Position numbers and translations under genes: made by a program. Below, in pieces: positions 4,975 through 63,500 of a stretch of 64,000 bases of DNA (position 1 is the first letter of the stretch; each line of letters begins with the position of its first letter). The notes beneath the pieces are model-generated. The model was not told where the DNA came from. It was given only the letters and a program-made list of their open reading frames with translations, and ran no database searches. The stretch is taken from positions 80,828 through 144,827 of the forward strand of contig CALRBH010000001.1 in the NCBI GenBank assembly GCA_943354165.1, given 5' to 3'. Source of the stretch: Candidatus Uhrbacteria bacterium RIFOXYB12_FULL_58_10 (GTDB lineage Bacteria > Patescibacteriota > Patescibacteriia > UBA9934 > GWF2-40-263).

Positions 4975-5526
4975 TTAGATGCGGCCTACGATGGCGGTCA
5001 TTCGGCCGGCCATATAGGTGATTTCCTGCTCGGTACGGATGGGGAAGTCGGTTTTCAGGAGTTCCATGAACTTGATGGCGACTTCGCGGGCGATCTCCTG
5101 GTGGCCCTTTTCACGGCCACGGAGCACGAGCTCGATCTTGACCTTATCCCCACGCTCGAGGAATTTCTTGGCCTGTTGATGGCGGACTTCAAGGTCGTGA
5201 TCTCCGATGCGGAGGGAAAGGCGGATCCCCTTGACCTCGACTTCATGCGATTGGGCCTTTTGTTTGCGGGCTTCCTTTTCCTTCTGGTATTTGAACTGGC
5301 CGAAGTTGAGGAGCTTGCAGACCGGCGGGTTTCCCTTAGGAGAGACTTCCACCAGGTCCGATTCTTTGCTGAGCGCAAGCGCGATGGCGTCCGCGGTCGT
5401 CATGACTCCAAGTGGTTCACCTTCAAGCCCAATAACGCGAACCTCAGGGACGAGGATCATTTCATTGGCCTTGTAGCTCGGAACCTCAAATTTGGGTTTC
5501 CGAACCCGGTGTCGATGAATACGCAT
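4975..5526 (-). CDS. infC: translation initiation factor IF-3
   Basis: VIGLEGEPLGVMTTADAIALA..., PPVCKLLNFGQFKYQKEK, C-domain; start uncertain (IF-3 often uses a non-ATG start; the ORF could extend to 5580). Confidence 0.85.
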   Translation of the reverse strand: MRIHRHRVRKPKFEVPSYKANEMILVPEVRVIGLEGEPLGVMTTADAIALALSKESDLVEVSPKGNPPVCKLLNFGQFKYQKEKEARKQKAQSHEVEVKGIRLSLRIGDHDLEVRHQQAKKFLERGDKVKIELVLRGREKGHQEIAREVAIKFMELLKTDFPIRTEQEITYMAGRMTAIVGRI

Positions 5527-5589: not shown

Positions 5590-6030
5590 ATGGCAGATCT
5601 AGCGTTCAACAAGCGGGCCGCATTCGATTACGACCTTCTTGAAAAACTTGAGGGCGGGTTAAAGCTGACCGGGCCGGAAGTGAAGTCGGCGAAGGCTGGG
5701 CACGTGCAATTTAAGGGGGCGTTTCTACATGTGCAGAAGGGAGAGCTGTGGCTTAAGAATCTCCACATCTCCAAATACGTTCCGGCGGGGGAGCAGCTGC
5801 TCTATAATCCAACGCGTGATCGGAAGGTGCTTGTCCACAAGCGGGATATTGCTCGGCTCACCGGAAAAACGCATGCGGACGGATTGACATTGGTGCCAAT
5901 TTCGGTGTATCTTCGCAGGAATCTCGTGAAGCTTTCCTTCGCCCTCGCGCGCGGAAAAAAGCTGTTCGAAAAGAAGGACGCGATCAAGAAACGCGATCTC
6001 GACAGGGAAGTCCGCCGCGGCGAGGCGTAG
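5590..6030 (+). CDS. smpB: SsrA-binding protein SmpB
   Basis: MADLAFNKRAAFDYDLLEKLEGGLKLTGPEVKS...; the track ORF from 5101 is an artefactual extension. Confidence 0.93.
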   Translation: MADLAFNKRAAFDYDLLEKLEGGLKLTGPEVKSAKAGHVQFKGAFLHVQKGELWLKNLHISKYVPAGEQLLYNPTRDRKVLVHKRDIARLTGKTHADGLTLVPISVYLRRNLVKLSFALARGKKLFEKKDAIKKRDLDREVRRGEA

Positions 6031-6113
6031 TTAGTAGTTAGTAGATAGTAGTTAGTAGAGTTGGTTGGAAAATTTTCCTACTTACTACTAACTACTTACT
6101 ACTAACTGCTAAC
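6028..6113. repeat. TAG-rich imperfect inverted repeat (GTTAGTAG units) forming a ~30-bp hairpin; an empty copy of the element that flanks the four-helix-bundle gene at 44784..45226
   Basis: TAGTTAGTAGATAGTAGTTAGTAG (identical 24-mer to 44791..44814), 19-nt spacer, then CTACTTACTACTAACTACTTACTACTAAC; starts at the smpB stop codon; stops in all three frames. Confidence 0.7.
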
Positions 6114-6127
6114 GCAGTTAGTCATAT

Positions 6128-6528
6128 GGGGCTGATCGGCTTCGCCGGCAGCCTGTTTCCGTCTAAGCAAGCCGAGGGTGTACTGAACCTCGTAAATCCT
6201 CTGTGCAAAGAAGTCATTTGCCAACCTCTTCTCACAAGTGAAGAGCGCGATCGCTTCGGCGTTCCGCGTTCCGACACTTGCCATGGTTACCGCCTAAGGG
6301 CTTGTAACCCATCCGTCCTGCTGGTTCGTAAGCGGGGTCGCGGGTGTTATATCTACGGACTCTCCTTGATGGACTACCGGTCTTCAGCAAGGGAATTGGC
6401 GGCCGGTCCGTCTGCAGGTATTTCGTTCTGTTTGACCCTGCAGCCGCGTAAATCTAACAGAACTTCGCTTGGAGAAAGGATTGGGGACAGTTGACCAGAC
6501 GGGGGTTCGATTCCCCCCAGCTCCACCA
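6128..6528 (+). ncRNA. ssrA: tmRNA (ssrA)
   Basis: 5' GGGGCTG pairs with 3' CAGCTCC-A-CCA (G3:U70-like wobble); 3' tRNA-like T-arm GGGGGTTCGATTCCCCC; adjacent to smpB; the tag ORF cannot be delineated confidently by eye (candidate in-frame stops at 6295 and 6459). Confidence 0.88.
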
Positions 6529-6590
6529 AAATATCCGATAGGCCTGTCCTCTCGGATATTTTGTTTGGGGAATGGTATACTCCTAGACGT

Positions 6591-7628
6591 ATGCCATTAC
6601 CGAAATCTCCTCTTCCGCAAACCATCACGCTTTCCACCGCCACGTTCATTAAGGCAGCGCTCGTGGTTGGCGGTATTGTCCTTGTCTGGTTCTTGCGTGA
6701 CGTGCTCGCGATCATTTTTGTCGCCCTCTTGCTCGCCGCGCTCATCGATCCGTTTGCGGACCATCTTCATTCGAAGGGGATGCCTCGCGGGCTCGGGGTC
6801 ATCATCATCTATTTATGTCTTGGAACGGTTTCGGTTCTTGGTCTGATTGTTCTTGTCCCAGTTGTCATTGAACAGTTCCTCCAGCTCGTCTCAAACCTTT
6901 CAGGAACCTATTCGGATTTTGCGAGTTCCTTCGGTCAGCTCAAGACGCTCTCGGTGAAGTACGGGTTTGAAACGAATCTTCTTTCAAGTCTTCAGTCGCT
7001 TCAGGAAGCGATCACTGGATCATTTGCTTCCATCTTCTCCACGGTACGCGGATTCTTCGGGGGGATTGCTGCTCTGTTTATCGTGCTCGTCCTCGCCTTT
7101 TACATGGTGGCGGAAGAAGACACGGCACGGAAATATTTTCAGAACATCGCTCCTCTGGAATATCAGCCGTTTCTTTCGCAGCTGTTTGCGAAGATGCAGA
7201 AGCGGATCGGTTCCTGGTTGCGCGGACAGCTCGTCCTTGGGTTGATCGTAGGGACGGCGGTGTATATCGGGTTGAGCTTGCTCGATGTAAAGTACGCGCT
7301 CCTTCTGGGTATTGTCGCCGCGATTTTCGAAGTGATCCCATATGTCGGTCCCGTCCTTTCGCTTATCCCGGCGGCGATCATTGGGTTCGCGCAGGGTCCG
7401 GTCACGGGCCTCTTGGTGGTAGGCCTCTACGTGATCATCCAACAGGTTGAGAATAACGTTCTGGTCCCGAAGATCATGCAAAAGGCGACGGGGCTGAATC
7501 CGGTCGTCAGCATCATTGCCCTTATGATCGGCATCCAGTTCGGCGGGCTGATCGGGGCCATTCTTTCCATTCCGGTCGCGACCATGATTTCCGTCGTGTT
7601 GGAAGATTTGTTTACACCAACCGCCTGA
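6591..7628 (+). CDS. AI-2E family transporter (PerM/YhhT-like, UPF0118)
   Basis: Multi-TM protein with typical C-terminal VENNVLVPKIM...GG motif region; start ATG 6591 with TATACT 9 nt upstream (the track ORF start at 6561 is a TTG). Confidence 0.75.
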   Translation: MPLPKSPLPQTITLSTATFIKAALVVGGIVLVWFLRDVLAIIFVALLLAALIDPFADHLHSKGMPRGLGVIIIYLCLGTVSVLGLIVLVPVVIEQFLQLVSNLSGTYSDFASSFGQLKTLSVKYGFETNLLSSLQSLQEAITGSFASIFSTVRGFFGGIAALFIVLVLAFYMVAEEDTARKYFQNIAPLEYQPFLSQLFAKMQKRIGSWLRGQLVLGLIVGTAVYIGLSLLDVKYALLLGIVAAIFEVIPYVGPVLSLIPAAIIGFAQGPVTGLLVVGLYVIIQQVENNVLVPKIMQKATGLNPVVSIIALMIGIQFGGLIGAILSIPVATMISVVLEDLFTPTA

Positions 7629-18424: not shown

Positions 18425-19975
18425 ATGAGCGTTATGTTGGACCTGCAGGCGATGTATGGCCTTACGGAGGAGCGGTCAAAGGGATTGATGGTGGTGCTCG
18501 CCATCTCGTTTGTTGTTCTCATCGGCTCCATGTCGTTTCTTTCGCCGGTAGCGGTGGTGGCCGGGGTGATTGGCGTTCTGCTGCTCGCTCTCACGATTGT
18601 GCGACCGCTCTGGACGCTGAGCCTACTCGCCCTCTACCTTCCGTTCGAGCCGTTTCTGCTCAAGTTTGCGCCGGACGAAGTGTATACGTTTGCCCGGTTC
18701 GGTTCCGAAGGACTCATCTATATTCTTGGGGGGCTCGTGATCGCGCGTATCCTCATGGGGCGTACGTCGAACGTTCAGACGCCTATCAGTCTTCCGTTCG
18801 TCCTGTTCTGCGTTGTTCTCGGCGCGTCCGCGCTTATCAATGCCGTGCCTCCGAGCATCGCCGTACTCGGCATCAGACAGATCATCAGGTTCATCCTGGT
18901 ATTCTTTATCGTCGTACAGCTCGCGCCGTCCAAGTCTTACATTTCAAAACTGACGATCGCACTGTTTGGGATTGCGGCGTTCGAAAGTTTGCTGGCGTTC
19001 GCCCAGCTCGTCATTGGTGCGCCGCTCGACACATTCCTCCTGCCGTCGGACACGCGCGCGATCGGCGACGTTGCCGTTACGGCCGGGACGACCCAGTTCT
19101 GGGACCCGGGCTCGCGCACGTTCGGGACGCTCGGTCGGTATGATCGGCTCGGAAACTTTCTGTTCATGATGCTGTTGTTCGGCGTCGGCTTCCTCACGCA
19201 GCAGGGGAAGCGCGCGATCTCTTTGTCCCGTAATCAACTTCTTTGGCTGTTCGCCCTCGGGTTACCTGCGCTCCTCATGACGTTCTCGCGCGCATCTTGG
19301 TTCGCCTTTCTCTTCGGCTTCCTTTTCATCATGGTGGTGCTGCTGCGCGATAAACGCGTGATGGCGGCGTTCGGGATTTGTGGGGTCCTTGCGGGAGCGT
19401 ACGTGGGATTGTCCGGGCTTAATGTACGGTTCATTACGGAAGCGCCGGGGCAGACCCTCATCGAGCGGTTTTACGAAACGTTCAGCTATGCGCGATGGCG
19501 CGGGGAATATTACGGACTCGGCCGCGTGTTTTGGTTCGTGCAAACCGTGTCAGTTGTCGTCCCCGCTGCGCCGATCTTTGGCTGGGGGCCTGGGCAGTAC
19601 GGGGCAGGGGCCGCGACCACGCTCGTGAATACGCGCGTGTATGACGCGCTCGGCTTGCCGTTCGGGGTCTATGGAACCGATGGGTATATCGATAACAACT
19701 GGTTCTCCTTATGGGGGGAAGCCGGAACGCTCGGACTCGCGTTTTTCCTCTGGATGTACATCGGACTATTTGTGTACGTATGGCGAGGATATCGCCGGAG
19801 TTCCGATGGGTTCACACGCGGGTTGTGCGCGGGGTATCTCGCCCTGCAAATCGGCGTCGCGTTCGCGGCGTTCCTTGCGACATCGTTCGAGACAAGAACG
19901 GTCGGGTACTACTTGTGGATGTATGCCGGGTTCCTCGTGGTGCTGCTTGAGCGTGAACGTCGTACGCCCGTATGA
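18425..19975 (+). CDS. O-antigen ligase / Wzy-type polymerase family membrane protein
   Basis: ~12 TM helices, large periplasmic loop containing the TFSRASW signature of the Wzy_C/O-antigen ligase family. Confidence 0.72.
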   Translation: MSVMLDLQAMYGLTEERSKGLMVVLAISFVVLIGSMSFLSPVAVVAGVIGVLLLALTIVRPLWTLSLLALYLPFEPFLLKFAPDEVYTFARFGSEGLIYILGGLVIARILMGRTSNVQTPISLPFVLFCVVLGASALINAVPPSIAVLGIRQIIRFILVFFIVVQLAPSKSYISKLTIALFGIAAFESLLAFAQLVIGAPLDTFLLPSDTRAIGDVAVTAGTTQFWDPGSRTFGTLGRYDRLGNFLFMMLLFGVGFLTQQGKRAISLSRNQLLWLFALGLPALLMTFSRASWFAFLFGFLFIMVVLLRDKRVMAAFGICGVLAGAYVGLSGLNVRFITEAPGQTLIERFYETFSYARWRGEYYGLGRVFWFVQTVSVVVPAAPIFGWGPGQYGAGAATTLVNTRVYDALGLPFGVYGTDGYIDNNWFSLWGEAGTLGLAFFLWMYIGLFVYVWRGYRRSSDGFTRGLCAGYLALQIGVAFAAFLATSFETRTVGYYLWMYAGFLVVLLERERRTPV

Positions 19976-21198
19976 CCGTCCTTCAAGCGCATAAATTTTA
20001 TTTTCCACGCGGCGGGGCGGAGACGTATCTCTTCGCGCTGTCCGAATATTTAGCGTCGCGCGGGTCAACGGTCGTTCCGTTCGCGATGCAACATCCGGGG
20101 AATCGGCAAACTCCATATTCGCACTATTTCCCTCGGTTCGTTCCTACGGAAAAAGTGAAGATGTCGCCGGCGGGATTGCGTACCGTAGGCCGGATGTTTT
20201 ATAGCTTCGAATCTAAGCGCCAGATGGAGCGATTGTTACGGGACGTCCCCATCGACGTCGCCCATATCCATAATCTGTACACGCAGCTGTCCCCATCGAT
20301 CCTTACTCCGCTCCGGAAGAGAAAGATTCCGACGGTGATGACGGTGCATGATTATCACCTGGTGACTCCGCACTATGCACTTCCGCTTGCCGGGCAGGCC
20401 GTGGACGTTTCTCGTGTGGGAGCATTGCGCGCGGCGCAGACGAAGTTTCATAAGGACTCAATGGCCGCAAGTTTTCTGCAAGCCGCATCTTATCGATTCA
20501 CCCGCCGCTGGAGATTTTATGATCGTGCCATTTCGCTCTTCATCGCTCCGAGTGAATTCATGGCGGCAAAACTGCGCGCGTCCGGATATGACAAGGATCG
20601 CATTCGCGTAATCCATTACGGCATCGACACGCGGACGATCGAACCTCGGTTCGGACACGATGGATATTTTCTGTTCGTCGGAAGGCTCTCGGAAGAGAAG
20701 GGGGTCGATACGGTGCTTGAGCTTGCGCATCGACTTCCGGATCTAAAGTTTAAGATTGTCGGGACCGGGCCAGATGAGGCGTTATTGCACTCCGTTGGCG
20801 ATCGACTTCCGAACGTCGAGTTCATGGGATACCAGCAAGGCCAGCGGTTGCGGGATCTGTACCTTGGTGCCCGGGCGGTATTAGTGCCTTCCAGGTGGGA
20901 GGAGCCTTCCGGTCTGGTTTTGCTTGAGGCCCAGGCCTGTGGAAAACCTGTGATTGCGAGCCATGCCGGTGGCATCCCGGAGGCCATGGAAGACCGCAGG
21001 AGCGGGTTTCTGGTCCCACCGCTTGATATCCACGCCTGGACCGAGGCCGTGCTGCGCCTCGCCTATGACGACCGGTCACGCGAAAAGATGGGCAGGGACG
21101 CCAGAACCCTTATGGAAGACCGGTTTTCGCTCAGGGCCCATTACGAGGCTGTGGAGCATGTTTATGCTGAGGCAATACGATTAGGGGGTAGTGCGTAG
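19972..21198 (+). CDS. glycosyltransferase family 4
   Basis: GT-B; C-terminal EPSGLVLLEAQACGKPVIASHAGGIPE (E-x7-E region). Confidence 0.85.
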   Translation: MTVLQAHKFYFPRGGAETYLFALSEYLASRGSTVVPFAMQHPGNRQTPYSHYFPRFVPTEKVKMSPAGLRTVGRMFYSFESKRQMERLLRDVPIDVAHIHNLYTQLSPSILTPLRKRKIPTVMTVHDYHLVTPHYALPLAGQAVDVSRVGALRAAQTKFHKDSMAASFLQAASYRFTRRWRFYDRAISLFIAPSEFMAAKLRASGYDKDRIRVIHYGIDTRTIEPRFGHDGYFLFVGRLSEEKGVDTVLELAHRLPDLKFKIVGTGPDEALLHSVGDRLPNVEFMGYQQGQRLRDLYLGARAVLVPSRWEEPSGLVLLEAQACGKPVIASHAGGIPEAMEDRRSGFLVPPLDIHAWTEAVLRLAYDDRSREKMGRDARTLMEDRFSLRAHYEAVEHVYAEAIRLGGSA

Positions 21199-21212
21199 TG
21201 TGTAGGGGGTAG
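21183..21212. repeat. stop-codon-rich GTAG motif GTAGTGCGTAGTGTGTAGGGGGTAGG overlapping the stop of the GT4 gene
   Basis: TAG in all three frames; shares the GCGTAGTGTGTA 12-mer with 33424..33448. Confidence 0.55.
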
Positions 21213-21253
21213 GAAAAAAGGGCTCTATTTAGCTAAATAACTGTTGAAATGGC

Positions 21254-22816: not shown

Positions 22817-22829
22817 AGGGTCTTTGTGG

Positions 22830-22868
22830 GGCTGTAAAGGCAGTAAGGGCTGTAAAGGCGGTAAGGGG
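22830..22868. repeat. tandem GGTAAGG/CCTTACC-type repeat upstream of the HTH gene
   Basis: GGCTGTAAAGGCAGTAAGGGCTGTAAAGGCGGTAAGGGG; related units at 30361..30405 and 63395..63500. Confidence 0.5.
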
Positions 22869-30351: not shown

Positions 30352-32403
30352 ATGCGTCGCCTTCTTACCCTTACCGCCCTTACAGCCATTACCGCCCTTA
30401 CCACCCAACCCGCACTCGCAGCCATCCCGAACGATCCTCTCATTGAACAGCAATGGTACCTGGCCAAGGTTCAGGCATTCAACGCATGGGACCACGGGAC
30501 GGGAACGGATGACGTCGTCGTTGCGGTGCTTGATACGGGTATTGATCTTGATCATCCGGATATAAAAGAGAATCTTTGGCGTAACGAAGGAGAGGTGAAA
30601 GGCGATGGGATCGATAATGATCAGAATGGTTTTGTTGACGATACGAACGGTTGGGATTTCATTGATGGGGACAACAGTCCGACTCCTTCCGCCGTGAACG
30701 CGCCGAGCGATGACGCGGTCGTGCATGGAACCGTCATTGCCGGAGTTATCGCCGCTGTTGGAAACAACGGGGAAGGGATCGCCGGGCTCAACTGGAAGGC
30801 GAAGATCATGCCGGTCCGCATCCTGGACCAATTCGGTTCCGGGACGAGCGAGGGAGCGCGTAAGGCCATCGAATACGCCGTGGCCAATCATGCCGACGTC
30901 ATTAATTTGAGTTTTACCGGATTCGAAGTCGACGAGGTCTTTAAGGACGTGGTTCACCGCGCGTACCAGGCAGGGGTGATTGTTGTTGCGGCTGTGGGGA
31001 ATAAAAGCGGCGGGGGAGTGAACCTGGACGAGACACCCGTGTATCCGGCCTGCTTCATGGGACTCGATGGGGACTGGGTGCTCGGTGTCGCCGCGACCAC
31101 TCGTCAGGACACCAAGGCTGGATTTTCAAACTACGGTTCGACCTGTACGGACATCAGTGCACCTGGGATCGAAGTGTTTGGCACGTCTTTTCAGGATCCG
31201 ACGGTAAACGGGTTTGGCCAGGCTTATCTTGGCGGATGGGCAGGTACATCGATTGCGTCTCCGATGGTGGCTGGCGCGGCTGCGCTGCTTAAGGCCAAGT
31301 ATCCGTTCATCACGCCAACGCAGGTAAAAACTGCATTGCAGCTTTCCGTGGATCCGCTTGCGGAAGTTGGGACGCCTGCCGCGGGGAAACTCGGTGCGGG
31401 TCGGCTGAACGTTGCTCGGGCGTTTGAGGTCGCGGGACAGTTTACGTTTGGGACGTCTTTGCCGATTCCTTCAGGACCCGCACCGGCAGTTCTCCCACCC
31501 CCTCCAACTCCCCCTCCGGGAGGGGGAGGGTTCGAGTCTGTTCGGATCGTCCTTGCGGCTGGGCCGGGTGCTGCGCCTCGAGTTCAGGTTTTTGATGAAG
31601 GCGGGCATGCGTCTGCATCGTTCTTGGCGTATGCCGAGGCGTTTAAGGGCGGCGTGCGCGTTGCGGCTGGCGATGTGGATGGGGACGGCGTCATGGAAAT
31701 CATCACGGTGCCCGGGCCAGGTGGCGGTCCGCACGTGCGTATCTTCACTCTTTCTGGCACGGTGAAAGGACAGTTTTTTGCCGGGGACAAGGCTGACCGG
31801 CGCGGATTAAACGTGTCGGTTGCGGATGTGGACGGCGATTTGAAATGGGAGATTATCACCAGCACGGAAGTGGGCGGGCTTGGGGAGGTGAACGTCTTTA
31901 CCATGGACGGAACTCGGCTTTCGAGCTTCAAACCGTTTCCAGGATCCAAGGAAGCGATTCGTGCGACGGGCGTGGACGCGGATGGAGATCGGCGAGATGA
32001 GATTGCCGTAGCGCTCGGCGCCGGGGCGAAACCGGAAGTGCGATTGTTTAGTTCCACCGGTTCGCTGAAGAAGAGTTTTCTTGCATATGGGGCAGGGTTC
32101 CTTGGCGGGATCTATTTGACTGCCGCGGATCTCGATGCAGACGGCAGCGAGGAAATCGTTGCGGGAACCGGGACTGGAGGAGGACCGCAGGTGCGGACGT
32201 TCACCGGCAAGGGTGCCGTCGTGGATTCTTTCTTCGCCTTTGACGCCACGCACCGCAAAGGGGTGATGGTCGCGGGGGCGGGCACGTTCCTTGTGGCCCT
32301 TGAAGGAAGCAGCGGAGCTGTGAAGCTCCTGAATCGCAAGGGACAGACCATGGGCGGATTCGATGTCCTCCCGGGCAATTATTCATTAGCTGTCCTTGAA
32401 TAA
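30352..32403 (+). CDS. secreted subtilisin-like serine protease (S8) with C-terminal FG-GAP/VCBS-like beta-propeller repeats
   Basis: Triad motifs VLDTGIDLDHPD, HGTVIAGVIAA, GTSIASPMVAGAAALL; repeats AAGDVDGDGVMEII, TAADLDADGSEEIV; the signal peptide is encoded by the CCCTTACC repeat; TATAAT 9 nt before the ATG. Confidence 0.85.
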   Translation: MRRLLTLTALTAITALTTQPALAAIPNDPLIEQQWYLAKVQAFNAWDHGTGTDDVVVAVLDTGIDLDHPDIKENLWRNEGEVKGDGIDNDQNGFVDDTNGWDFIDGDNSPTPSAVNAPSDDAVVHGTVIAGVIAAVGNNGEGIAGLNWKAKIMPVRILDQFGSGTSEGARKAIEYAVANHADVINLSFTGFEVDEVFKDVVHRAYQAGVIVVAAVGNKSGGGVNLDETPVYPACFMGLDGDWVLGVAATTRQDTKAGFSNYGSTCTDISAPGIEVFGTSFQDPTVNGFGQAYLGGWAGTSIASPMVAGAAALLKAKYPFITPTQVKTALQLSVDPLAEVGTPAAGKLGAGRLNVARAFEVAGQFTFGTSLPIPSGPAPAVLPPPPTPPPGGGGFESVRIVLAAGPGAAPRVQVFDEGGHASASFLAYAEAFKGGVRVAAGDVDGDGVMEIITVPGPGGGPHVRIFTLSGTVKGQFFAGDKADRRGLNVSVADVDGDLKWEIITSTEVGGLGEVNVFTMDGTRLSSFKPFPGSKEAIRATGVDADGDRRDEIAVALGAGAKPEVRLFSSTGSLKKSFLAYGAGFLGGIYLTAADLDADGSEEIVAGTGTGGGPQVRTFTGKGAVVDSFFAFDATHRKGVMVAGAGTFLVALEGSSGAVKLLNRKGQTMGGFDVLPGNYSLAVLE

Positions 32404-34126: not shown

Positions 34127-34477
34127 ATGTCGTTCACCCTCATCCAAATCATTCTCATCGGCGTTGCCTTGCTCGGAGCGTTCCGTACTGTGCGACAGTT
34201 TAGGGCCGGCCGCGTGCCACCCGCCTGGCTCGCCTTTTGGGGAGCGTGCTGGACGGCACTCGCGGTCGTCGCCTTCATTCCGCAGACGACCGACATCGCG
34301 GCGAACATTTTCGGCGTCGGCCGCGGAGTTGATCTTGCGGTGTACGTTTCCATCGTTCTTCTGTTCGCCCTCTCCTTCAAGCTCCTCATGAAGATCGAGG
34401 ATCTTGAGCGCGACATTACCAGGCTCGTCCGCGCGCTCGCCCTTAAGGATTCCGATAAGACTGATCATGTCGCCTAA
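34127..34477 (+). CDS. DUF2304-like small membrane protein (GT2 partner)
   Basis: 116 aa, 3 TM, directly downstream of the GtrB-like GT2. Confidence 0.55.
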   Translation: MSFTLIQIILIGVALLGAFRTVRQFRAGRVPPAWLAFWGACWTALAVVAFIPQTTDIAANIFGVGRGVDLAVYVSIVLLFALSFKLLMKIEDLERDITRLVRALALKDSDKTDHVA

Positions 34478-35546
34478 GGTTTCCATCGTCTACCTTTCGT
34501 ACAACTCCGTCCCGTATCTCCCGGACGTCGTGGACGCATGGGTAAAGATCGACTATCCGCGCGAGTCTCTTGAAATCGTGATCGTCGATAATGCGTCGGC
34601 CGACGGGAGCGTGGCGTGGATTCAGGAACATGTTCTTCCTCGGTCCGGTGCAGGTCTTCCCTCAATCATCTTTTTTTCACAGAAGGAGAACCTCGGATTT
34701 GCGGGTGGGTGCAATATTGGGATGGAGTACGCCATAGCGAACGGCGCTTCGTACGTCTATTTGCACAACAACGACTTGAAGCTCGATTCGGCTTCCATGA
34801 AGGAAGCGGTTTCACTCGCGGAATCAGATGCGTCCATCGGGTCCGTGCAGTCGCTCATGTGCCTGTGGCAGGATCCCTTGCGGGTTAATTCGACGGGAGG
34901 CATGGTGCACTTTCTTGGATTCGGGTTTGTGCGCGACAACGGACGGCTGCTTGCTGACTGTTCCGTTACGGATGGCGGGGAGATCGCGTACGGAAGTGGG
35001 GCAGCGACGCTCTACCGCTCTTCGTGTTTGAAAGAAGTTGGCCTGCTCGATTCGTTCTTGTGGCTCTATCACGAAGATTTGGAACTTGGCTGGCGCTTGC
35101 GGTTGGCCGGATTCAAGAACGTGCTTTCGACGAAATCGATCGCGTACCACAAGTACGAATTTCGTCGATCGACTTCGAAGATTTTTTGGATGGAGCGCAA
35201 CCGACTGCTCGTTCATCTTTCGCTATTGAAGCCTGGAACGATTATTTTGCTTGCGCCGTTTCTTTTGGCGCTTGAACCGGCTCTCATTCTGTTTTCCATC
35301 AAGGGCGGATGGTGGAAAGAAAAGTTCCGCGCGCTCGCGGCATTTTTCTCGCCGAAGCTCTGGACGTACCTGTACGAAAAACGAAAAGAAGCCCGGATGC
35401 TGCGTCGGGTGTCCGACCGAGAGATTGTAAGGATGTGGACGGGGAAGATCGTTCATCAGGAAACCTCGAATCCGCTAGTGGACCGGTTCGCGAATCCGGT
35501 GCTTGGTGGCGTCTGGGAGGTTTTGAAGAACCTGATAGTATGGTGA
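34467..35546 (+). CDS. glycosyltransferase family 2
   Basis: Start MSPKVSIVYLSYNS (overlaps the upstream stop); IVDNASADGS; NLGFAGGCNIG. Confidence 0.8.
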   Translation: MSPKVSIVYLSYNSVPYLPDVVDAWVKIDYPRESLEIVIVDNASADGSVAWIQEHVLPRSGAGLPSIIFFSQKENLGFAGGCNIGMEYAIANGASYVYLHNNDLKLDSASMKEAVSLAESDASIGSVQSLMCLWQDPLRVNSTGGMVHFLGFGFVRDNGRLLADCSVTDGGEIAYGSGAATLYRSSCLKEVGLLDSFLWLYHEDLELGWRLRLAGFKNVLSTKSIAYHKYEFRRSTSKIFWMERNRLLVHLSLLKPGTIILLAPFLLALEPALILFSIKGGWWKEKFRALAAFFSPKLWTYLYEKRKEARMLRRVSDREIVRMWTGKIVHQETSNPLVDRFANPVLGGVWEVLKNLIVW

Positions 35547-35565
35547 GATTGTAGATGTTTAGAGT

Positions 35566-35655
35566 GGGCAGGGTTTGCAGGGTGGGCAAGGGTGTAGGAA
35601 ATTTTTATAAAAAGCCATTCCATCACCCCGCCCATCCTTGCCCACCCCACAAACC
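35566..35655. repeat. long imperfect hairpin with G-tract-rich arm (GGGcaGGGtttgcaGGGtGGGcaaGGG), potential G-quadruplex / i-motif pair
   Basis: Left arm GGGTTTGCAGGGTGGGCAAGG, right arm CCTTGCCCACCCCACAAACCC; between two GT genes. Confidence 0.5.
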
Positions 35656-35666
35656 CCTCGATTCCT

Positions 35667-36845
35667 ATGAAAATCGCCCAGGTCGTCTCAACATATCCTC
35701 CCTATCATGGCGGCATGGGCCGTGTGGCGTTTGAATATACGGAACGTTTGCGGGCACACGGGAACAATGTCCACGTGTTCACGCCGCAGTATCGGAATGG
35801 TGGAGACCCCACTTCGCCAAGGCTTCGAGGGGCAGGAGATCCGGAGTATGTTCATCGCGTGCCGTCCCCGCTTACGGCGGGGAATGCGGGCGTAGTGCCG
35901 TCGCTTTTCAACCGCATGAAAGGGTTCGATGTCGTGCATCTCCATTATCCTTTTTTTGGCGGGGCCGAACCCGTTATTATTCGGAAAGCAATACGGGACG
36001 ATCAGGCGCTCGTGATGACCTATCACATGGACGCCGTGGCAGATGGCGTGCGCGGCGCCATATTTGAAGCGCATCGCCGACTGTTGTTTCCGTGGATCGT
36101 CGGACGCTGCGATCGCATCCTCGTAAGTTCCAAGGAGTATGCGCAGTCCTCTTCGCTCTCTCGCGTGCACGGAGCGCTTGAGAAGGTGGAGATCCATCCG
36201 TTCGGGATCGACCTGCAGCGATTCTCTCCCGGGAGCGAACCGGAGTTGCGCGCGCAGCTCGGGATCACGGAAGCGGTTCCTCTGATTATTTTTGTCGGCG
36301 GGTTGGATACGGCACATCACTTTAAAGGATTACCCGTGCTGCTTAAGGCTCTTGAAACTCTTTCTGCGACGAAGTGGCATCTTCTTGTGATCGGTGACGG
36401 GGACATGCAGCCTACGTTTCAGGCGAACGTGTCTGCTGGCGCCATCAAGGATCGCGTGACGTTTCTTGGAAACGTGACGGACGAGGAGCTTCCGCGCTGG
36501 TACCGTGCGGCGGACCTTCACGTGTTTCCGTCCACGGAGCGCGCAGAGGCGTTCGGGCTCGTGGCGCTCGAGGCCGCCGCGTCCGGCATTCCGTCCATCG
36601 CGTCCGCGCTTCCCGGCGTTGCTTCCGTCGTACTCGATGGAGAGACGGGGATGCTTGTCCCCCCAAACGATGCGACCGCGCTCGCGAAGGCGATCGAACT
36701 TCTGTTGCTTCGGGCCGACGTGCGCGAACGTTTCGGCATGGCCGCGCGCAAACGCGCGGAAGCGGATTTCGCGTGGGGGCCGATCATTTCGAAGCTTGAA
36801 GGGACCTACCGCTCGCTGCTCGCTACACGAACCATGCGCGTATGA
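35667..36845 (+). CDS. glycosyltransferase family 4
   Basis: MKIAQVVSTYPPYHGGMGRVAFEY; C-terminal EAFGLVALEAAASGIPSIAS. Confidence 0.85.
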   Translation: MKIAQVVSTYPPYHGGMGRVAFEYTERLRAHGNNVHVFTPQYRNGGDPTSPRLRGAGDPEYVHRVPSPLTAGNAGVVPSLFNRMKGFDVVHLHYPFFGGAEPVIIRKAIRDDQALVMTYHMDAVADGVRGAIFEAHRRLLFPWIVGRCDRILVSSKEYAQSSSLSRVHGALEKVEIHPFGIDLQRFSPGSEPELRAQLGITEAVPLIIFVGGLDTAHHFKGLPVLLKALETLSATKWHLLVIGDGDMQPTFQANVSAGAIKDRVTFLGNVTDEELPRWYRAADLHVFPSTERAEAFGLVALEAAASGIPSIASALPGVASVVLDGETGMLVPPNDATALAKAIELLLLRADVRERFGMAARKRAEADFAWGPIISKLEGTYRSLLATRTMRV

Positions 36846-43124: not shown

Positions 43125-44596
43125 AGTCCATCCGTGCGATTCAGGCTTTGATCATTCTTGTCCCCGTCATCCTGTTCGGCTGGCTGCTTTGGCAGGAGCT
43201 CGTCCCGACGGGCACGTTTATCATGGAGCGAGTCGCAGGAACGGCCTCGCCGTTTATTGATCGATTGCTTCCGGACGGACGCGTGCAGCTCGCTGATCCT
43301 CATTCCGCTCGTCCTACGGATACCATCACGGGCGACCCTGCGTTCTTTTTCGTCCATCCGCACCGCGGATTTGAATCCGGCGAGGTGGAAATTCGTTTTC
43401 AGAATACGGGCGTGCCCATCGTTGAGTTTGGTGGACTGGCGCGCGAAGAAGGACAGGTCTATGACCTCACGCCCATTCAGAACCGGCTGATCGACACCTC
43501 CACATGGACGCGTCATGAAGAACAAGGAATCACTCTTCTTGAGCGCGAGCCGAAGTTCGCGACGATCGCTGATTTTCTTGCGAACCCTCCGCCGCGCCAT
43601 GAGATTTCCACCTATCACTATCGACTCGCCCGCGCGTACCGGATGCCCGGGTATGTCGCACAAGGAGGCACCAGGAACATCGACGTTTCTTTGCGCGGAT
43701 TTCATGAATTCGAAACGTACCTGAAGAACGAGCCGCTTTCGTTCACGTTTTCTTATACGGATGAGAACCGCGGGGAAGGGCCGGACCCGTTTGAGGTGAT
43801 CGTCTTCAATGAGAACAACGAAGCCGTGACGGACGTCCATGTGGCGGATGACGGAAATACAGGCGATGATGCGCGGCCTTCCAGAATACGCACCGCGACC
43901 GTTTCGCTCGCATTGGTTCCGGAAGGGACGTACAAACTTGAGATACGGGTTGGCACGGACATTTTTTTGAGATCGATTCAGACAAGCGCGAACAAGCTCG
44001 TCGCGATGAACACCATCATTCTCGGAGATGAGGTTGGCTACAAGCCCGTGCCGTCGAGCGTGCGGATGTGGACGGAGTCGAAGACGCTCGCGTTTGAGAC
44101 GACGCACGCGGAAGGGGTGCAGTCGGTGGAGGTTGGGGCGAACGCCGTTGCTCTCGCGACGCCATTTACGCGCGTGGAATACGACGTGAAGGAATCCGGC
44201 GTCGTGCGCATTACGGTTCCGAAGGGCGATGCGCGCGTGTTCGGCGACGGACATTATGCGTTTGCCCCGGACCAGTTTTTCAATCCGGATCCTGTACGTC
44301 TGAACGCCACCACGAATCTTGATCGGCTCGGGGTAAACTATGTCATCGCCGCCTATACTCCGCCTGTGAAGGACCCTTCGACAAGCTCAGGGCAGGGAGG
44401 GGAATGGCTCGTGGCGCGCGTTCCGTTTAACACAGAAGGACTCGTTCAACTGAACGGCACCTGGAAATTTGCGTTCTCGCTTCCGGGAATCGAGCGGACA
44501 GGCGGCGCGGTGAACGTCCGATCCGTCTCGTTCACCATGCACCGGGCTCCTCTCACCATCTCTGTATTGATGACCCTGATCCGTTCGCGCTTATGA
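43121..44596 (+). CDS. hypothetical membrane-anchored extracytoplasmic protein
   Basis: N-terminal TM ALIILVPVILFGWLLW; 450-aa beta-rich ectodomain; translationally coupled to the GT-C. Confidence 0.5.
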   Translation: MKSIRAIQALIILVPVILFGWLLWQELVPTGTFIMERVAGTASPFIDRLLPDGRVQLADPHSARPTDTITGDPAFFFVHPHRGFESGEVEIRFQNTGVPIVEFGGLAREEGQVYDLTPIQNRLIDTSTWTRHEEQGITLLEREPKFATIADFLANPPPRHEISTYHYRLARAYRMPGYVAQGGTRNIDVSLRGFHEFETYLKNEPLSFTFSYTDENRGEGPDPFEVIVFNENNEAVTDVHVADDGNTGDDARPSRIRTATVSLALVPEGTYKLEIRVGTDIFLRSIQTSANKLVAMNTIILGDEVGYKPVPSSVRMWTESKTLAFETTHAEGVQSVEVGANAVALATPFTRVEYDVKESGVVRITVPKGDARVFGDGHYAFAPDQFFNPDPVRLNATTNLDRLGVNYVIAAYTPPVKDPSTSSGQGGEWLVARVPFNTEGLVQLNGTWKFAFSLPGIERTGGAVNVRSVSFTMHRAPLTISVLMTLIRSRL

Positions 44597-44793
44597 AACC
44601 GTTCACGCTTCGTCTCATCGCTACGTTGTTCCGCGTAAGTGCCCTCTCGTACGTTTTATTCTGGGCGGCAGATGCGATGAGGCCAGGGTTTGTGTCACGA
44701 TACGTCTCCGTCCACTTGTTCGGGTTGCTTGCGCTTGTGTTCGGAACCCTTTTTGCGGTATATGGAGAGGACGTTGGGGGTCGTAGTAAGTAG
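44593..44793 (+). CDS. small 2-TM membrane protein
   Basis: 66 aa, overlapping start with the upstream gene. Confidence 0.4.
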   Translation: MKPFTLRLIATLFRVSALSYVLFWAADAMRPGFVSRYVSVHLFGLLALVFGTLFAVYGEDVGGRSK

Positions 44794-45226
44794 TTAGTAG
44801 ATAGTAGTTAGTAGGTATGGATGATGATTTGCGCAGGGATAAACGTTCATATAAAGATTTGACGGTTTGGCAGAAGTCCATGGATTTGGTTGTGCTTATC
44901 TACGAACTGACAAAAGATTTTCCTGCCGATCAGAAATTTAGTCTTGTGAATCAGATGCAGCGTGCGGCTGTCTCTGTGCCGTTGAATATCGCGGAAGGTT
45001 CACGTAGACGAAGTGAAGCAGATAATATTCGTTTTCTCCGCATCGCGTTTGGATCAGCGTCTGAACTCGAAACCCAGATCCTTATCTCTCAACGTCTCCG
45101 GTTCGGTCATTCTGAGAAATATTCAGGCATAAAAAGCTTGCTTATAGAGGTTCTCAAGATGCTAAACAAAATGTCAGAATGACCGTAACCCTACTTTCTA
45201 CTTACTACTATCTTCTAACTACACCC
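44784..45226 (+). mobile_element. cassette: four-helix-bundle (23S rRNA IVS protein) gene bracketed by TAG-rich imperfect inverted repeats, inserted exactly between two host genes
   Basis: Left arm GTAGTAAGTAGTTAGTAGATAGTAGTTAGTAGG overlaps the upstream stop codon; right arm CCCTACTTTCTACTTACTACTATCTTCTAACTACACCC ends 2 nt before the HIT ATG; 24-nt core identical to 6031..6054. Confidence 0.6.
44817..45182 (+). CDS. four helix bundle protein (TIGR02436; 23S rRNA-intervening-sequence protein family)
   Basis: 121 aa; YKDLTVWQKSMDLVVLIYELTKDFPADQKFSLVNQMQRAAVSVPLNIAEG... typical of the family. Confidence 0.85.
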   Translation: MDDDLRRDKRSYKDLTVWQKSMDLVVLIYELTKDFPADQKFSLVNQMQRAAVSVPLNIAEGSRRRSEADNIRFLRIAFGSASELETQILISQRLRFGHSEKYSGIKSLLIEVLKMLNKMSE

Positions 45227-45228
45227 AT

Positions 45229-45645
45229 ATGTCTGACTGTATTTTCTGTAAAATCATTGCGGGGGACATTCCTGCCATAAAGATTCATGAGGACGAGCAG
45301 TGCATTGCATTTCTCGATATCCATCCAGTGAACCCTGGGCACACGCTGATCGTTCCGAAGGAACACCATGCAAATTTTCTTGAGACGCCTAAGGAACTCG
45401 TGGCGGTGATCATGGCGCTCGGACAGAAGCTTTCGCCGGCCATCCTTAAAGCCGTCGGTTCCGATTCGTTTAATTTTTCTACGAACAACGGCCGCGCAGC
45501 AGGACAGTTGATTGCTCATACGCATTTTCACCTGATCCCGCGCTTTCCGGCAGACGGCCATAAGATGTGGCATGGGTCTGACGAGCATCAGGATTTTGCG
45601 GCGATGGCCACGAAGATTCGAGAGGCAGTAGGCAGTGGGGAGTAG
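45229..45645 (+). CDS. HIT family hydrolase
   Basis: CIFCKIIAGDIPA; HTHFHLIPR histidine triad. Confidence 0.9.
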   Translation: MSDCIFCKIIAGDIPAIKIHEDEQCIAFLDIHPVNPGHTLIVPKEHHANFLETPKELVAVIMALGQKLSPAILKAVGSDSFNFSTNNGRAAGQLIAHTHFHLIPRFPADGHKMWHGSDEHQDFAAMATKIREAVGSGE

Positions 45646-45654
45646 GAAGTAGAT

Positions 45655-62439: not shown

Positions 62440-63399
62440 ATGAAGCTCTCGCCTATTGCGATCTTGGTTGCAATTTGCGTGAGCCTCGCCGCTCTTGCGG
62501 TTTGGGCCATGCCTCAAGTGGAGCCGCGCTGGGGCGTGACGTTTTCCACCAAGTATTCTCGCGAGCTCGGGTTGAATCCGGAAACCGTGTTTTGGGAGGT
62601 GGTGAACGACCTGAACGTCCGTGCAATCCGGTTGCCCGTGTATTGGGATGAGGTGAATCCACAATTCGACGTTTGGAATTGGCAGCCGTACGACCATCTG
62701 GTTGAAATGGCCGATGAGAAGGGGGTCGCCCTCACGCTTGCGGTGGGAATGAAGACGCCGCGCTGGCCGGAATGCCATGTTCCAGAATGGGCCGCCTCCA
62801 TTTCCTCCATCGATTCATTCGACAAGCAGCGATCCGCCTACATCGATGCGGTTATTAAACGATACGACGGACACGTCTCCGTGGAGCGGTATCAGATCGA
62901 GAATGAGCCGTTGTTTCCGTTTGGTGAGTGTCCGGGTTCCAGCATCGAGCGGCTGGAAGAAGAAGTGCATCGTGCGAGGCTTGTGACGACGAAGCCAATA
63001 CAAATCACGGCGAGCGGAGAATTCGAGCTCTGGAGCCGTGTGGCCCCTCTTGTCGATGTCCTTGGCGTTTCCCTTTATCGCATTTCCTGGAACGATGCAT
63101 ACGGTTTTTTTCGCTATCCCATTCCCGCCGCGTATTACCGATTACGGGCTATGGGTATCCAGCGTCCGGTTATTATTTCCGAGCTTCAGGCCGAGCCGTG
63201 GTTTCCCGTCTCCATTGAGAGTCACCCCGCCTCTTATTGGGCGCAGCTGTTCACGTCCAATGATTTCCGCGACCAGGTCCGCTTTGCCCGCCGGACCGGA
63301 TTGTCCGAAGCGTATCTTTGGGGGGTGGAGTGGTGGTACTATTTGCGTGCTCACGGATATCCAGAGCTTTGGGACGCTGCGCGTCCTCTTTGGCGGTAA
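62440..63399 (+). CDS. secreted TIM-barrel glycoside hydrolase (GH5/GH113/PslG-like)
   Basis: Signal/TM anchor; conserved ENEP (acid/base) and SELQAEPW (nucleophile) typical of clan GH-A. Confidence 0.55.
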   Translation: MKLSPIAILVAICVSLAALAVWAMPQVEPRWGVTFSTKYSRELGLNPETVFWEVVNDLNVRAIRLPVYWDEVNPQFDVWNWQPYDHLVEMADEKGVALTLAVGMKTPRWPECHVPEWAASISSIDSFDKQRSAYIDAVIKRYDGHVSVERYQIENEPLFPFGECPGSSIERLEEEVHRARLVTTKPIQITASGEFELWSRVAPLVDVLGVSLYRISWNDAYGFFRYPIPAAYYRLRAMGIQRPVIISELQAEPWFPVSIESHPASYWAQLFTSNDFRDQVRFARRTGLSEAYLWGVEWWYYLRAHGYPELWDAARPLWR

Positions 63400-63500
63400 G
63401 GGCGGTTAGGGTTGTAAGGGGAGTAAGGGATTTTCCTTTCGCTCTATTCGTTCTGTCGCCCTTACCGTCCATTACCACCCTTACAACCCTTACCACCCAA
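63395..63500. repeat. inverted repeat of GGTAAGGG/CCCTTACC units (G-quadruplex-capable left arm) between the GH gene stop and the next gene
   Basis: GGTAAGGGCGGTTAGGGTTGTAAGGGGAGTAAGGG ... CCCTTACCGTCCATTACCACCCTTACAACCCTTACCACCCAAC; shares CCCTTACCACCCAAC with 30391..30405. Confidence 0.55.

Follow-up and report, generated by a model that had tools for sequence, protein, structure and literature searches.

A four-helix-bundle gene between inverted heptamer arrays in a Patescibacteria operon resembles an rRNA intervening sequence outside rRNA

We analysed a 64,000-nucleotide stretch (the window) of the genome of Candidatus Uhrbacteria bacterium RIFOXYB12_FULL_58_10 (contig CALRBH010000001.1); positions given without a locus label are those of the window, and counts for the source genome refer to these 64 kb. 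The names of homologous proteins likewise point to a member of the Patescibacteria close to Uhrbacteria. Positions 44783-45222 of the forward strand form a compact element of ~440 bp, here called the cassette, in which a G-rich array of ~4.5 heptamers is followed, with almost no spacer, by a gene for a four-helix-bundle (4HB) protein and then by a complementary C-rich array. The cassette lies between a truncated membrane-protein gene and a gene of the HIT family, with a gene of unknown function and rmlB-like genes farther out. The features of the locus are as follows (ORF, open reading frame).

44593..44793, + strand: truncated host gene, the first 66 codons of a small membrane-protein gene; its stop codon, TAG at 44791-44793, lies within the left arm
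44783..44815, + strand: left arm, ~4.6 tandem GTAGWWA units, with the G-rich strand as sense strand; 1 nt separates it from the ATG of the cargo gene
44817..45182, + strand: cargo ORF, 121 aa, 4HB protein by its matches to the PF05635 and TIGR02436 profiles
45190..45222, + strand: right arm, reverse-complement heptamers CTACTWW; begins 7 nt past the stop codon of the cargo gene and ends 6 nt before the ATG of the HIT gene
45229..45645, + strand: downstream host gene, HIT family; its last codons and TAG stop lie within a single heptamer array

An earlier reading of the sequence, made from the letters alone (the sequence-only reading), had taken the 121-residue product for a 4HB protein of the TIGR02436 type, and profile searches bear this out. 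The ORF scores 131 bits against PF05635 (23S_rRNA_IVP; cut-off 33.8, E = 2.5e-38), matching profile positions 1-106 of 106, and 119.8 bits against TIGR02436 (cut-off 24, E = 5.8e-35). These scores, above the curated cut-offs and across the full domain, assign the cargo to the PF05635/TIGR02436 family. The protein is also similar in sequence to two solved pentamers, the four-helix bundle XCC0516 (PDB 2GSC, E = 1.9e-24) and 2RLD (E = 1.9e-7), and the PHROG 'Avd protein of DGR' (diversity-generating retroelement) matches it at 1.8e-8. A PADLOC search gave no match, and membership in a defence system was rejected. Compared with the orthologue in a related locus, L002 (89% amino-acid identity), the cargo gene has a ratio of non-synonymous to synonymous substitution rates (dN/dS) of 0.13, and the protein is under purifying selection. 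The dS between window 44817-45182 and L002 1512-1883 is 0.42, whereas the flanking host genes of the same two genomes give 0.91-1.34; the low value for the 4HB gene could come from constraint at the nucleotide level or from a later exchange of the cassette.

The inverted repeats that had been proposed around the gene are also present. The two arms (44783-44815 and 45190-45222) have a complementarity of 79% across 33 nt, which rises to 92% across 25 nt if the register is shifted by one unit, and their duplex of about 30 bp has a computed energy of -39 kcal/mol. The element is bounded by terminal inverted repeats that form a long stem around it, and its predicted fold has a z-score of -3.6.

A second element, lacking a cargo gene, lies in the spacer between smpB and the transfer-messenger RNA (tmRNA) gene, ssrA.

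5590..6030, + strand: smpB, 146 aa, normal in length; ends with the first TAG of the hairpin left arm, at 6028-6030, as its stop codon
6027..6058, + strand: hairpin left arm, 4.6 GTAGTTA units, with an exact 24-mer in common with the cassette left arm
6059..6077, + strand: hairpin loop, 19 nt, without an ORF
6078..6113, + strand: hairpin right arm, 5.1 CTACTAA units
6128..6528, + strand: tmRNA gene, Rfam RF00023, 105 bits

This hairpin had been predicted as a cargo-less stem of ~30 bp, and the description holds: its 30-nt arms are 90% complementary around the 19-nt loop, with a duplex energy of -42.6 kcal/mol. The segment 6027-6113 folds with a minimum free energy of -50 kcal/mol and a z-score of -8.5. 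The 24-nt core claimed to link the two elements, TAGTTAGTAGATAGTAGTTAGTAG, occurs in exact copies at 44791-44814 and 6035-6058, and shuffled sequences give 0 such matches. A shorter 11-mer, GTAGTTAGTAG, has 14 occurrences in the window with at most one mismatch, where 0.1 are expected, and all of them fall in the cassette and hairpin loci. Rather than being ubiquitous and unpaired, an outcome that the sequence-only reading had named as fatal to it, the motif is confined to these two loci of the 64 kb. As a side observation on annotation, ARAGORN missed the tmRNA gene at 6128-6528, which Rfam finds at 105 bits over the full-length model.

To establish how each element came to its site, we compared the two loci with those of relatives. 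For the cassette, relatives were located through the neighbouring 491-aa protein (49-60% identity). Relatives free of the cassette have the same gene order, namely PMT_2, a gene of 48x aa, a small membrane protein and HIT, with no 4HB gene. Their small membrane protein is intact at 119-128 aa (128 aa in L210 and 124 aa in L211), whereas the 66-aa ORF of the window aligns to the N-terminal half of that protein and ends where the left arm begins. On this comparison, the cassette has replaced the 3′ half, ~170-190 nt, of the host membrane-protein gene. The sequence-only reading had placed the cassette precisely between the host stop codon and the HIT ATG; this has to be corrected, because the 3′ half of the host gene was replaced and the TAG belongs to the left arm. 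L002, a closer relative, has the insertion, the truncation (its form of the membrane protein is 72 aa) and the arm type in common with the window; a relative with the 4HB gene at this site and no flanking repeats, which would have spoken against the proposed association, was thus not what this locus presented.

The hairpin site was compared with five relative loci, L246-L250. In four of them (SmpB 73% identical), the tmRNA gene begins 0-7 nt past the smpB stop; the gap in the window is 97 nt and holds the heptamer hairpin. Because both cassette and hairpin are missing from the orthologous sites in related Patescibacteria, they are lineage-specific insertions, not conserved host hairpins, which agrees with the proposal of an element family with and without cargo. 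A third, single array at the junction of HIT and rmlB is likewise not in L002, where HIT and rmlB overlap by ATGA. Like the cassette and the hairpin, the single arrays are insertions specific to the lineage, and all of them lie at the 3′ ends of genes that run in the same direction. Neither the cassette junction nor the hairpin junction shows a direct duplication, at empty orthologous sites that have diverged too far for the junctions to be placed to the base. The fifth relative, L250, has a ~165-nt insert in its smpB-tmRNA spacer (1945-2115) with a long inverted repeat, ATGAACCTTCGAAACGG... / ...CCGTTTCGGAGGTTCAT, that is not heptamer-based; with the window, this makes the smpB-tmRNA junction look like a recurrent landing site for hairpin elements.

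Arrays of this kind recur across the 4HB gene family. Homologues at 57-65% identity lie in four unrelated gene contexts, one of them between pheS and pheT, and all carry AGTAG-type heptamer arrays on both sides. We then used a metagenomic sample of 80 loci at 45-58% identity, 70 of which have 100 nt on both sides and entered the arm test. The complementarity between upstream and downstream flanks lies above the 95th percentile of permuted flank pairs at 47 of these 70 loci and above the maximum of permuted pairs at 33, and 0 of 114 other genes in the same DNA reach the level of the 4HB flanks. Viral contigs from IMG/VR behave alike, with inverted arms at 19 of 31 4HB loci. Of the 4HB flanks, 72 of 110 on the upstream side and 62 of 107 on the downstream side contain tandem repeats, compared with 11 of 214 control segments; the period is 7 in 55 upstream and 44 downstream repeat flanks, and period 8 makes up most of the remainder. 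The arrays have a median size of 4.5 units, ~30 nt. Their position and polarity are regular as well: G exceeds C in the upstream arm at 41 of 45 loci, the right arm begins 0-2 nt past the stop codon at 18 of 46, and the stop of an upstream co-oriented ORF lies within -10 to +11 nt of the left-arm start at 21 of 34. None of the sampled 4HB loci is in an rRNA context.

The architecture is constant and the unit varies by locus (TGGTGAG, AGGGATT, AGGTAAC, GCTAGTC and TCAGGGG, among others). A universal AGTAG flank was accordingly rejected, such units being present in only 2 of 74 metagenomic loci. The GTAGWWA unit, for its part, flanks visibly divergent 4HB proteins in Patescibacteria, Elusimicrobiota, Fibrobacterota and Bacteroidota. 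When homologues from different contexts are compared, close ones have the unit type in common in 17-50% of cases, as opposed to 1% for distant ones, in a small sample; a strict pairing of protein and unit is weakly supported, as arm similarity rises only at protein identities of at least 60%, again in a small sample. Heptamer-armed 4HB genes are a broad regularity, of which the window cassette is one instance, and this regularity appears to be undescribed so far.

Several individual loci of the family deserve mention. In Nostoc punctiforme, five TCAGGAG units stand upstream of the 4HB gene, and the 4HB gene of Anabaena sp. 90 plasmid pANA02 (gene order cas6, 4HB, cas4) has AGGTGAC/CTGTCAC arms. 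On this plasmid (L253) and on pPg_01 of Pseudanabaena galeata (L254), the gene lies between cas6 and cas4 of a CRISPR-cas operon; pPg_01 has very long direct arrays, (AAAGCTA)x14 upstream and (AAAGCCA)x10 downstream of the gene. In L197, two inverted array pairs with the same unit (CGAGACG / TCGCGTC) occupy 211-708 and 1395-1893, the arrays of each pair ~440 nt apart and the pairs 1.2 kb from each other, suggesting two cassettes in tandem.

The position of the arms over stop codons suggests what they may do for the element. Every GTAG-type array in the window overlaps the stop of the upstream ORF. Across loci, arms read inward close all three frames in 19 of 35 cases, as against 5.2 for shuffled arms. 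TAG is found in 31 of 70 upstream units, a twofold enrichment over the 15.4 expected when the letters of the unit are shuffled, and any stop codon in 47 units, compared with 38.4 expected on the same basis. As the period is not a multiple of three, one stop per unit is enough to close all frames. In the window elements, the inward-facing, TAG-bearing heptamers close all frames and provide the stop of the upstream gene; an element with such arms can therefore land in or at the end of an ORF with translation still terminated. As the sole rationale for the arrays, stop supply was only partly supported, because the published Xanthomonas and Nostoc units have no stop codons.

We also searched the cassette for its own transcription signals. 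No promoter or terminator match was found in the arms or at the cassette ends; the single promoter-like match, inside the ORF, is no more than shuffled sequences give. Transcription by read-through from the host operon is therefore likely. As relatives have only 0-7 nt between the two genes, smpB and ssrA presumably share a transcript, which would then include the hairpin. If the arms paired specifically in the sense RNA, an excess of mismatches that become G-U pairs would be expected. This was not found: of the arm mismatches, 46 correspond to G-U in the sense RNA and 43 to A-C, without strand bias.

Related arrays also occur without a 4HB gene, two of them in the window.

45623..45652, + strand: single unpaired array of the AGGCAGT/AGTAGGA type, at the HIT stop and rmlB start
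21182..21213, + strand: single array of heptamers with a GTAG core (TAGGGGG/TAGTGCG...), overlapping the stop of ORF 19972-21198

The array at 45623-45652 lengthens HIT by four residues and provides its TAG stop. Elsewhere, the unit of a cassette recurs within the same few kilobases at 14 of 56 loci, compared with 0 of 327 tests with units from other loci, so that each genome has its own repeat unit 'dialect'. On a Tannerellaceae contig (L076), filled and empty GTAG elements stand 1 kb apart at successive gene junctions, as in the window. GTAG arrays from other genomes follow a co-oriented ORF in 79 of 128 cases, and 24 GTAG hairpins have loops of <150 nt. The idea that every GTAG array marks a 4HB gene was rejected, with such a gene at 4 of 120 loci.

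Other repeats in the window may belong to the same kind of element. A cargo-less hairpin of 9-nt units at 63392-63498, (GGCGGTAAG)x4.2, a 29-nt loop and (CCCTTACCA)x4.3, stands between ORF 62440-63399 and the next gene; the TAA stop of the upstream ORF falls in the first unit, and the hairpin looks like a second repeat 'dialect'. The complement of this unit forms a C-rich 9-nt array at 30368-30406, (CCCTTACCG)x4.3; this array falls in the opening 20 codons of ORF 30352-32403 and gives the product a repetitive N-terminus, LTLTALTAITALTT, that resembles a signal peptide. A repeat arm has apparently become part of a coding sequence here. A single array at 22829-22867, (GGGCTGTAA/AGGCAGTAA)x4.3, lies on the non-coding strand just upstream of an apparent minus-strand gene start, in agreement with the second preferred position in Rehm et al. 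An intercistronic inverted repeat, GTGGGCAGGGTTTGCAGGGTGGGCAAGG / CCTTGCCCACCCCACAAACCC, occupies 35560-35650 between ORF 34404-35546 and ORF 35667-36845. In other genomes, a Saccharibacteria contig (L065) has three GTAG-type arrays ~1.3 kb apart (3961-4060, 5292-5400 and 6556-6660). Each of the first two is followed by a conserved small hairpin, AAGGTCACACCT...AGGAGTGACCTTG, which suggests a composite repeat family, and the third has its own inverted pair, GTAGCYNG / CTGGCTAC. Two metagenome-assembled genomes, from Omnitrophica (L026, 4269-4630) and Paceibacterota (L087, 1522-1785), each have a group I intron in the 23S rRNA gene; their GTAG arrays are downstream of the 5S rRNA gene, not in the 23S gene. 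The distance is ~45 nt in L026, whereas in L087 it is ~200 nt, with the array on the opposite strand.

Taken together, we consider it probable, with moderate confidence, that the cassette is an insertion element of the rRNA intervening sequence (IVS) type that resides outside rRNA, in a protein-coding operon, and that has hairpin-only and single-array relatives; the arrays at 45623-45652 and 21182-21213 would be one-armed relatives of the cassette and the hairpin. An IVS-type cassette would have inserted into or at the end of an ORF in a co-directional operon, the TAG of its arm ending the upstream gene. Read-through transcription from the host operon would then yield a transcript in which the arms pair as a ~30-bp stem. 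By analogy with rRNA, RNase III may cut this stem and free the cassette RNA from the host message: the stem is as long as RNase III substrates are, and its homologue in rRNA is one of them. Finally, arms and gene may spread as a unit within and between genomes, by array-to-array recombination or through a trans-acting factor. RNase III processing and the mode of spread are both inferred, and the mode of spread is the weakest step of the explanation.

Several observations weigh against this account. Neither a transposase, a target-site duplication or an excision event nor any other sign of mobility was seen in the 64-kb window, in which no systematic transposase search was made, and the cassette insertion came with the loss of ~170-190 nt of host DNA. 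About one third of 4HB genes have no detectable arms, and the Pseudanabaena gene has direct, not inverted, arrays. Conversely, arrays largely exist without the gene: among 128 strict GTAG arrays taken from other genomes, 90 lack a partner arm at a distance of up to 800 nt, and a 4HB gene is nearby in only 4 of 120 loci that hold strict GTAG arrays. Heptamers without stops in Xanthomonas and Nostoc (units as given in PMC4692102) mean that the stop-supply role is not universal. Moreover, an RNA stem under selection should favour G-U pairs; the symmetric mismatches weaken a purely RNA-level reading and are explained no less well by homogenisation at the DNA level or by a role of both strands.

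Several of these points would be expected if the heptamer arrays were a host feature, that is, simple repeats generated by polymerase slippage and kept as intercistronic hairpins, with the 4HB gene a passenger that lands or survives in their loops. Such hairpins might stabilise mRNA as repetitive extragenic palindromic (REP) elements do, or form other structures (cf. GGGNATC in Xanthomonas/Nostoc), and the arms would be the target of the gene. We regard this explanation as unlikely, although a good deal agrees with it. There are far more arrays than 4HB genes (a gene at 4 of 120 GTAG-array loci; 24 hairpins with short loops), arrays can arise singly at gene junctions, and the cargo-free arrays of Rehm et al. 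(PMC4692102) are a published case. The unit type is specific to the genome and common to filled, empty and single arrays, GTAGWWA surrounds divergent 4HB proteins in four phyla, and the IVSs of rRNA occupy the tips of hairpins that were already there. However, relatives have neither hairpin nor gene at the cassette site, so that two successive insertions at one spot would be needed, and no other gene family in the sampled loci is found between such arms (0 of 114). The arms also hug the ORF (right arm 0-2 nt past the stop at 18 of 46 loci), leaving little sign of a former loop, and close homologues in different contexts match in unit type more often than distant ones (17-50% versus 1%, small sample).

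Alternatively, the arms could act in DNA, as the ends of a mobile element that is hairpin-dependent or resembles a miniature inverted-repeat transposable element (MITE); they would form a cruciform or a single-strand hairpin that an unlinked recombinase, or the 4HB protein itself, recognises, and the RNA stem would be incidental. This would explain mismatch types that are symmetric between strands (46 versus 43), the presence/absence polymorphism of both copies and a unit number that varies between near-identical loci (L003 versus L005; Coxiella strains). The dS of 0.42 for the 4HB gene against 0.9-1.3 for its flanks is compatible with later cassette exchange, and the element is present on IMG/VR viral contigs and cyanobacterial plasmids. 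Against it, no target-site duplication, transposase or recombinase was seen beside any copy, no systematic transposase search having been made, and the G-rich-upstream polarity (41 of 45 loci; 79 of 128 arrays after a co-oriented ORF) points to a constraint linked to transcription or translation, not to a symmetric cruciform. On balance, we judge such a DNA-level role of the arms improbable.

A more sweeping possibility, to which we would give rather little credence, is that the Avd-like 4HB protein and the inverted arrays constitute a self-contained, transposase-free mobile element. The pentamer would recognise arrays of ~4-5 units, as RNA or DNA, and seed or copy them at stop codons, alone or with a host polymerase or reverse transcriptase. 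The rRNA IVSs, the cargo-less hairpins and the cyanobacterial (short tandemly repeated repetitive (STRR) sequences, GGGGAYT) and xanthomonad (GGGAATC) repeats would then be products of one system, each genome with its own dialect.

Chance low complexity, with two loci that have no common origin or role, can be set aside as scarcely credible: the arms are simple tandem repeats, and it is, taken by itself, not very improbable that two arrays of one unit agree exactly over 24 nt, but shuffles give no matches, both loci are insertions, the architecture recurs in >100 independent loci with controls, and the shuffles, permuted flanks and flanks of 114 other genes rule it out.

If the favoured account of an IVS-type cassette is correct, rRNA IVSs, whose origin and function have been unresolved since 1990, would be the rRNA-resident members of a larger family of gene-end cassettes, and hundreds of non-rRNA copies with empty sites would be available for comparison. 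The period-7 repeats of Xanthomonas and cyanobacteria, which have no known role, would gain a candidate link to a conserved protein partner. The finding also speaks against a general explanation of the four-unit preference by G-quadruplex formation. For annotation, such elements truncate or extend host genes and provide their stops; in the window, the 66-aa fragment would pass for a gene, and SmpB and HIT have altered C-termini.

Genes for 4HB proteins outside rRNA are already well known, annotated as 'four helix bundle protein' or 'S23 ribosomal protein'. In the literature searched, the coverage of which is incomplete, so that a prior description is possible, nothing was found that links 4HB/PF05635 genes to heptamer arrays or reports IVS-type cassettes in mRNA operons. 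On the repeat sequence, PF05635, TIGR02436, or heptamers together with IVSs, it yielded only a paper on Coxiella (PMC4990558) and that of Rehm et al. (PMC4692102).

Four known systems bear comparison with the cassette. The first is Avd, the accessory protein of DGRs, which belongs to a homologous four-helix-bundle fold family. The cargo scores 23.7 bits against DivGenRetAVD (NCBIfam), far from the cut-off of 80, and its neighbours are the truncated membrane-protein gene and HIT, neither of them a reverse transcriptase gene; no search aimed at template and variable repeats was made. The cargo thus does not qualify as a DGR accessory Avd.

The second comprises REP elements, bacterial interspersed mosaic elements and MITEs. 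Like these, the elements described here are short imperfect palindromes just past stop codons between co-directional genes, are multicopy, and are present or absent between relatives; they have inverted terminal arms, as MITEs do. They differ in having tandem heptamer arrays as arms where the others have a unique palindrome, and in the conserved, non-transposase protein gene within some copies. Neither a RAYT (Y1 transposase) or other transposase nor a target-site duplication was seen, no search aimed at RAYTs having been made. With their GTAG core, the units bear no more than a resemblance to the GTAG head of REP elements.

The third comprises tandem heptamers, the cyanobacterial STRR heptamers among them. 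Rehm et al. (2015; PMC4692102) described genome-wide heptamers, GGGAATC in Xanthomonas and GGGGA(C/T)T in Nostoc, in arrays of about 4 units and without any cargo. In their arrays the coding strand is the G-rich one; the arrays stand between co-directional genes and overlap the stop codon or follow it by no more than 50 bp. They are transcribed, form 70-75 convergent pairs per genome and vary in length between relatives. The window elements have the same period of 7, about 4 units, post-stop position on the coding strand and convergent pairs. Rehm et al. read the heptamers as G-quadruplex formers of unknown function, and the term 'S23' occurs 0 times in their paper (PMC4692102). G-tracts are where the likeness ends: GTAGWWA has no GG(G) run, and GGG is found in only 17 of 70 units flanking 4HB genes. 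A G-quadruplex explanation was rejected here, because GTAGWWA lacks G-tracts yet has the same preferences for unit number and position.

The closest parallel, which the sequence-only reading had already drawn, is with the rRNA IVS itself. In Leptospira, the stem of the rRNA IVS is cut by RNase III, and the IVSs of Salmonella, contrary to the sequence-only reading, are not known to carry an ORF. The 23S IVS of Coxiella burnetii is 428-444 nt long, and its 28-bp terminal stem is cut by RNase III in vitro (PMC4990558). Two or three tandem GACAGAT heptamers and one degenerate copy, in a number that varies between strains, stand directly before the start codon of its S23p gene, which has a poor ribosome-binding site (PMC4990558). 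The cassette corresponds to the rRNA IVSs of Leptospira and Coxiella in its cargo family (PF05635/S23p), in its total length of ~430-440 nt, in a sense-strand ORF within the loop and in terminal inverted repeats that form a stem of ~28-30 bp. It is like the Coxiella IVS in particular in the variable-number tandem heptamers directly before the ATG and in a poor or absent Shine-Dalgarno sequence; by sequence, an S23p/4HB ORF in a loop, preceded by tandem heptamers of the Coxiella type, is what the window holds. The differences are also clear. The unit is GTAGWWA rather than GACAGAT, the cassette ORF is under purifying selection whereas the Coxiella ORF is decaying, and RNase III cutting is demonstrated for the Coxiella stem but only predicted for that of the cassette. 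Above all, the cassette lies in an mRNA operon, where it truncates a protein gene. Rfam finds no rRNA in the 64-kb window, and residence in a 23S helix (9, 25 or 45), which defines an IVS, is lacking; we therefore refer to the element not as an IVS but as an IVS-type cassette outside rRNA.

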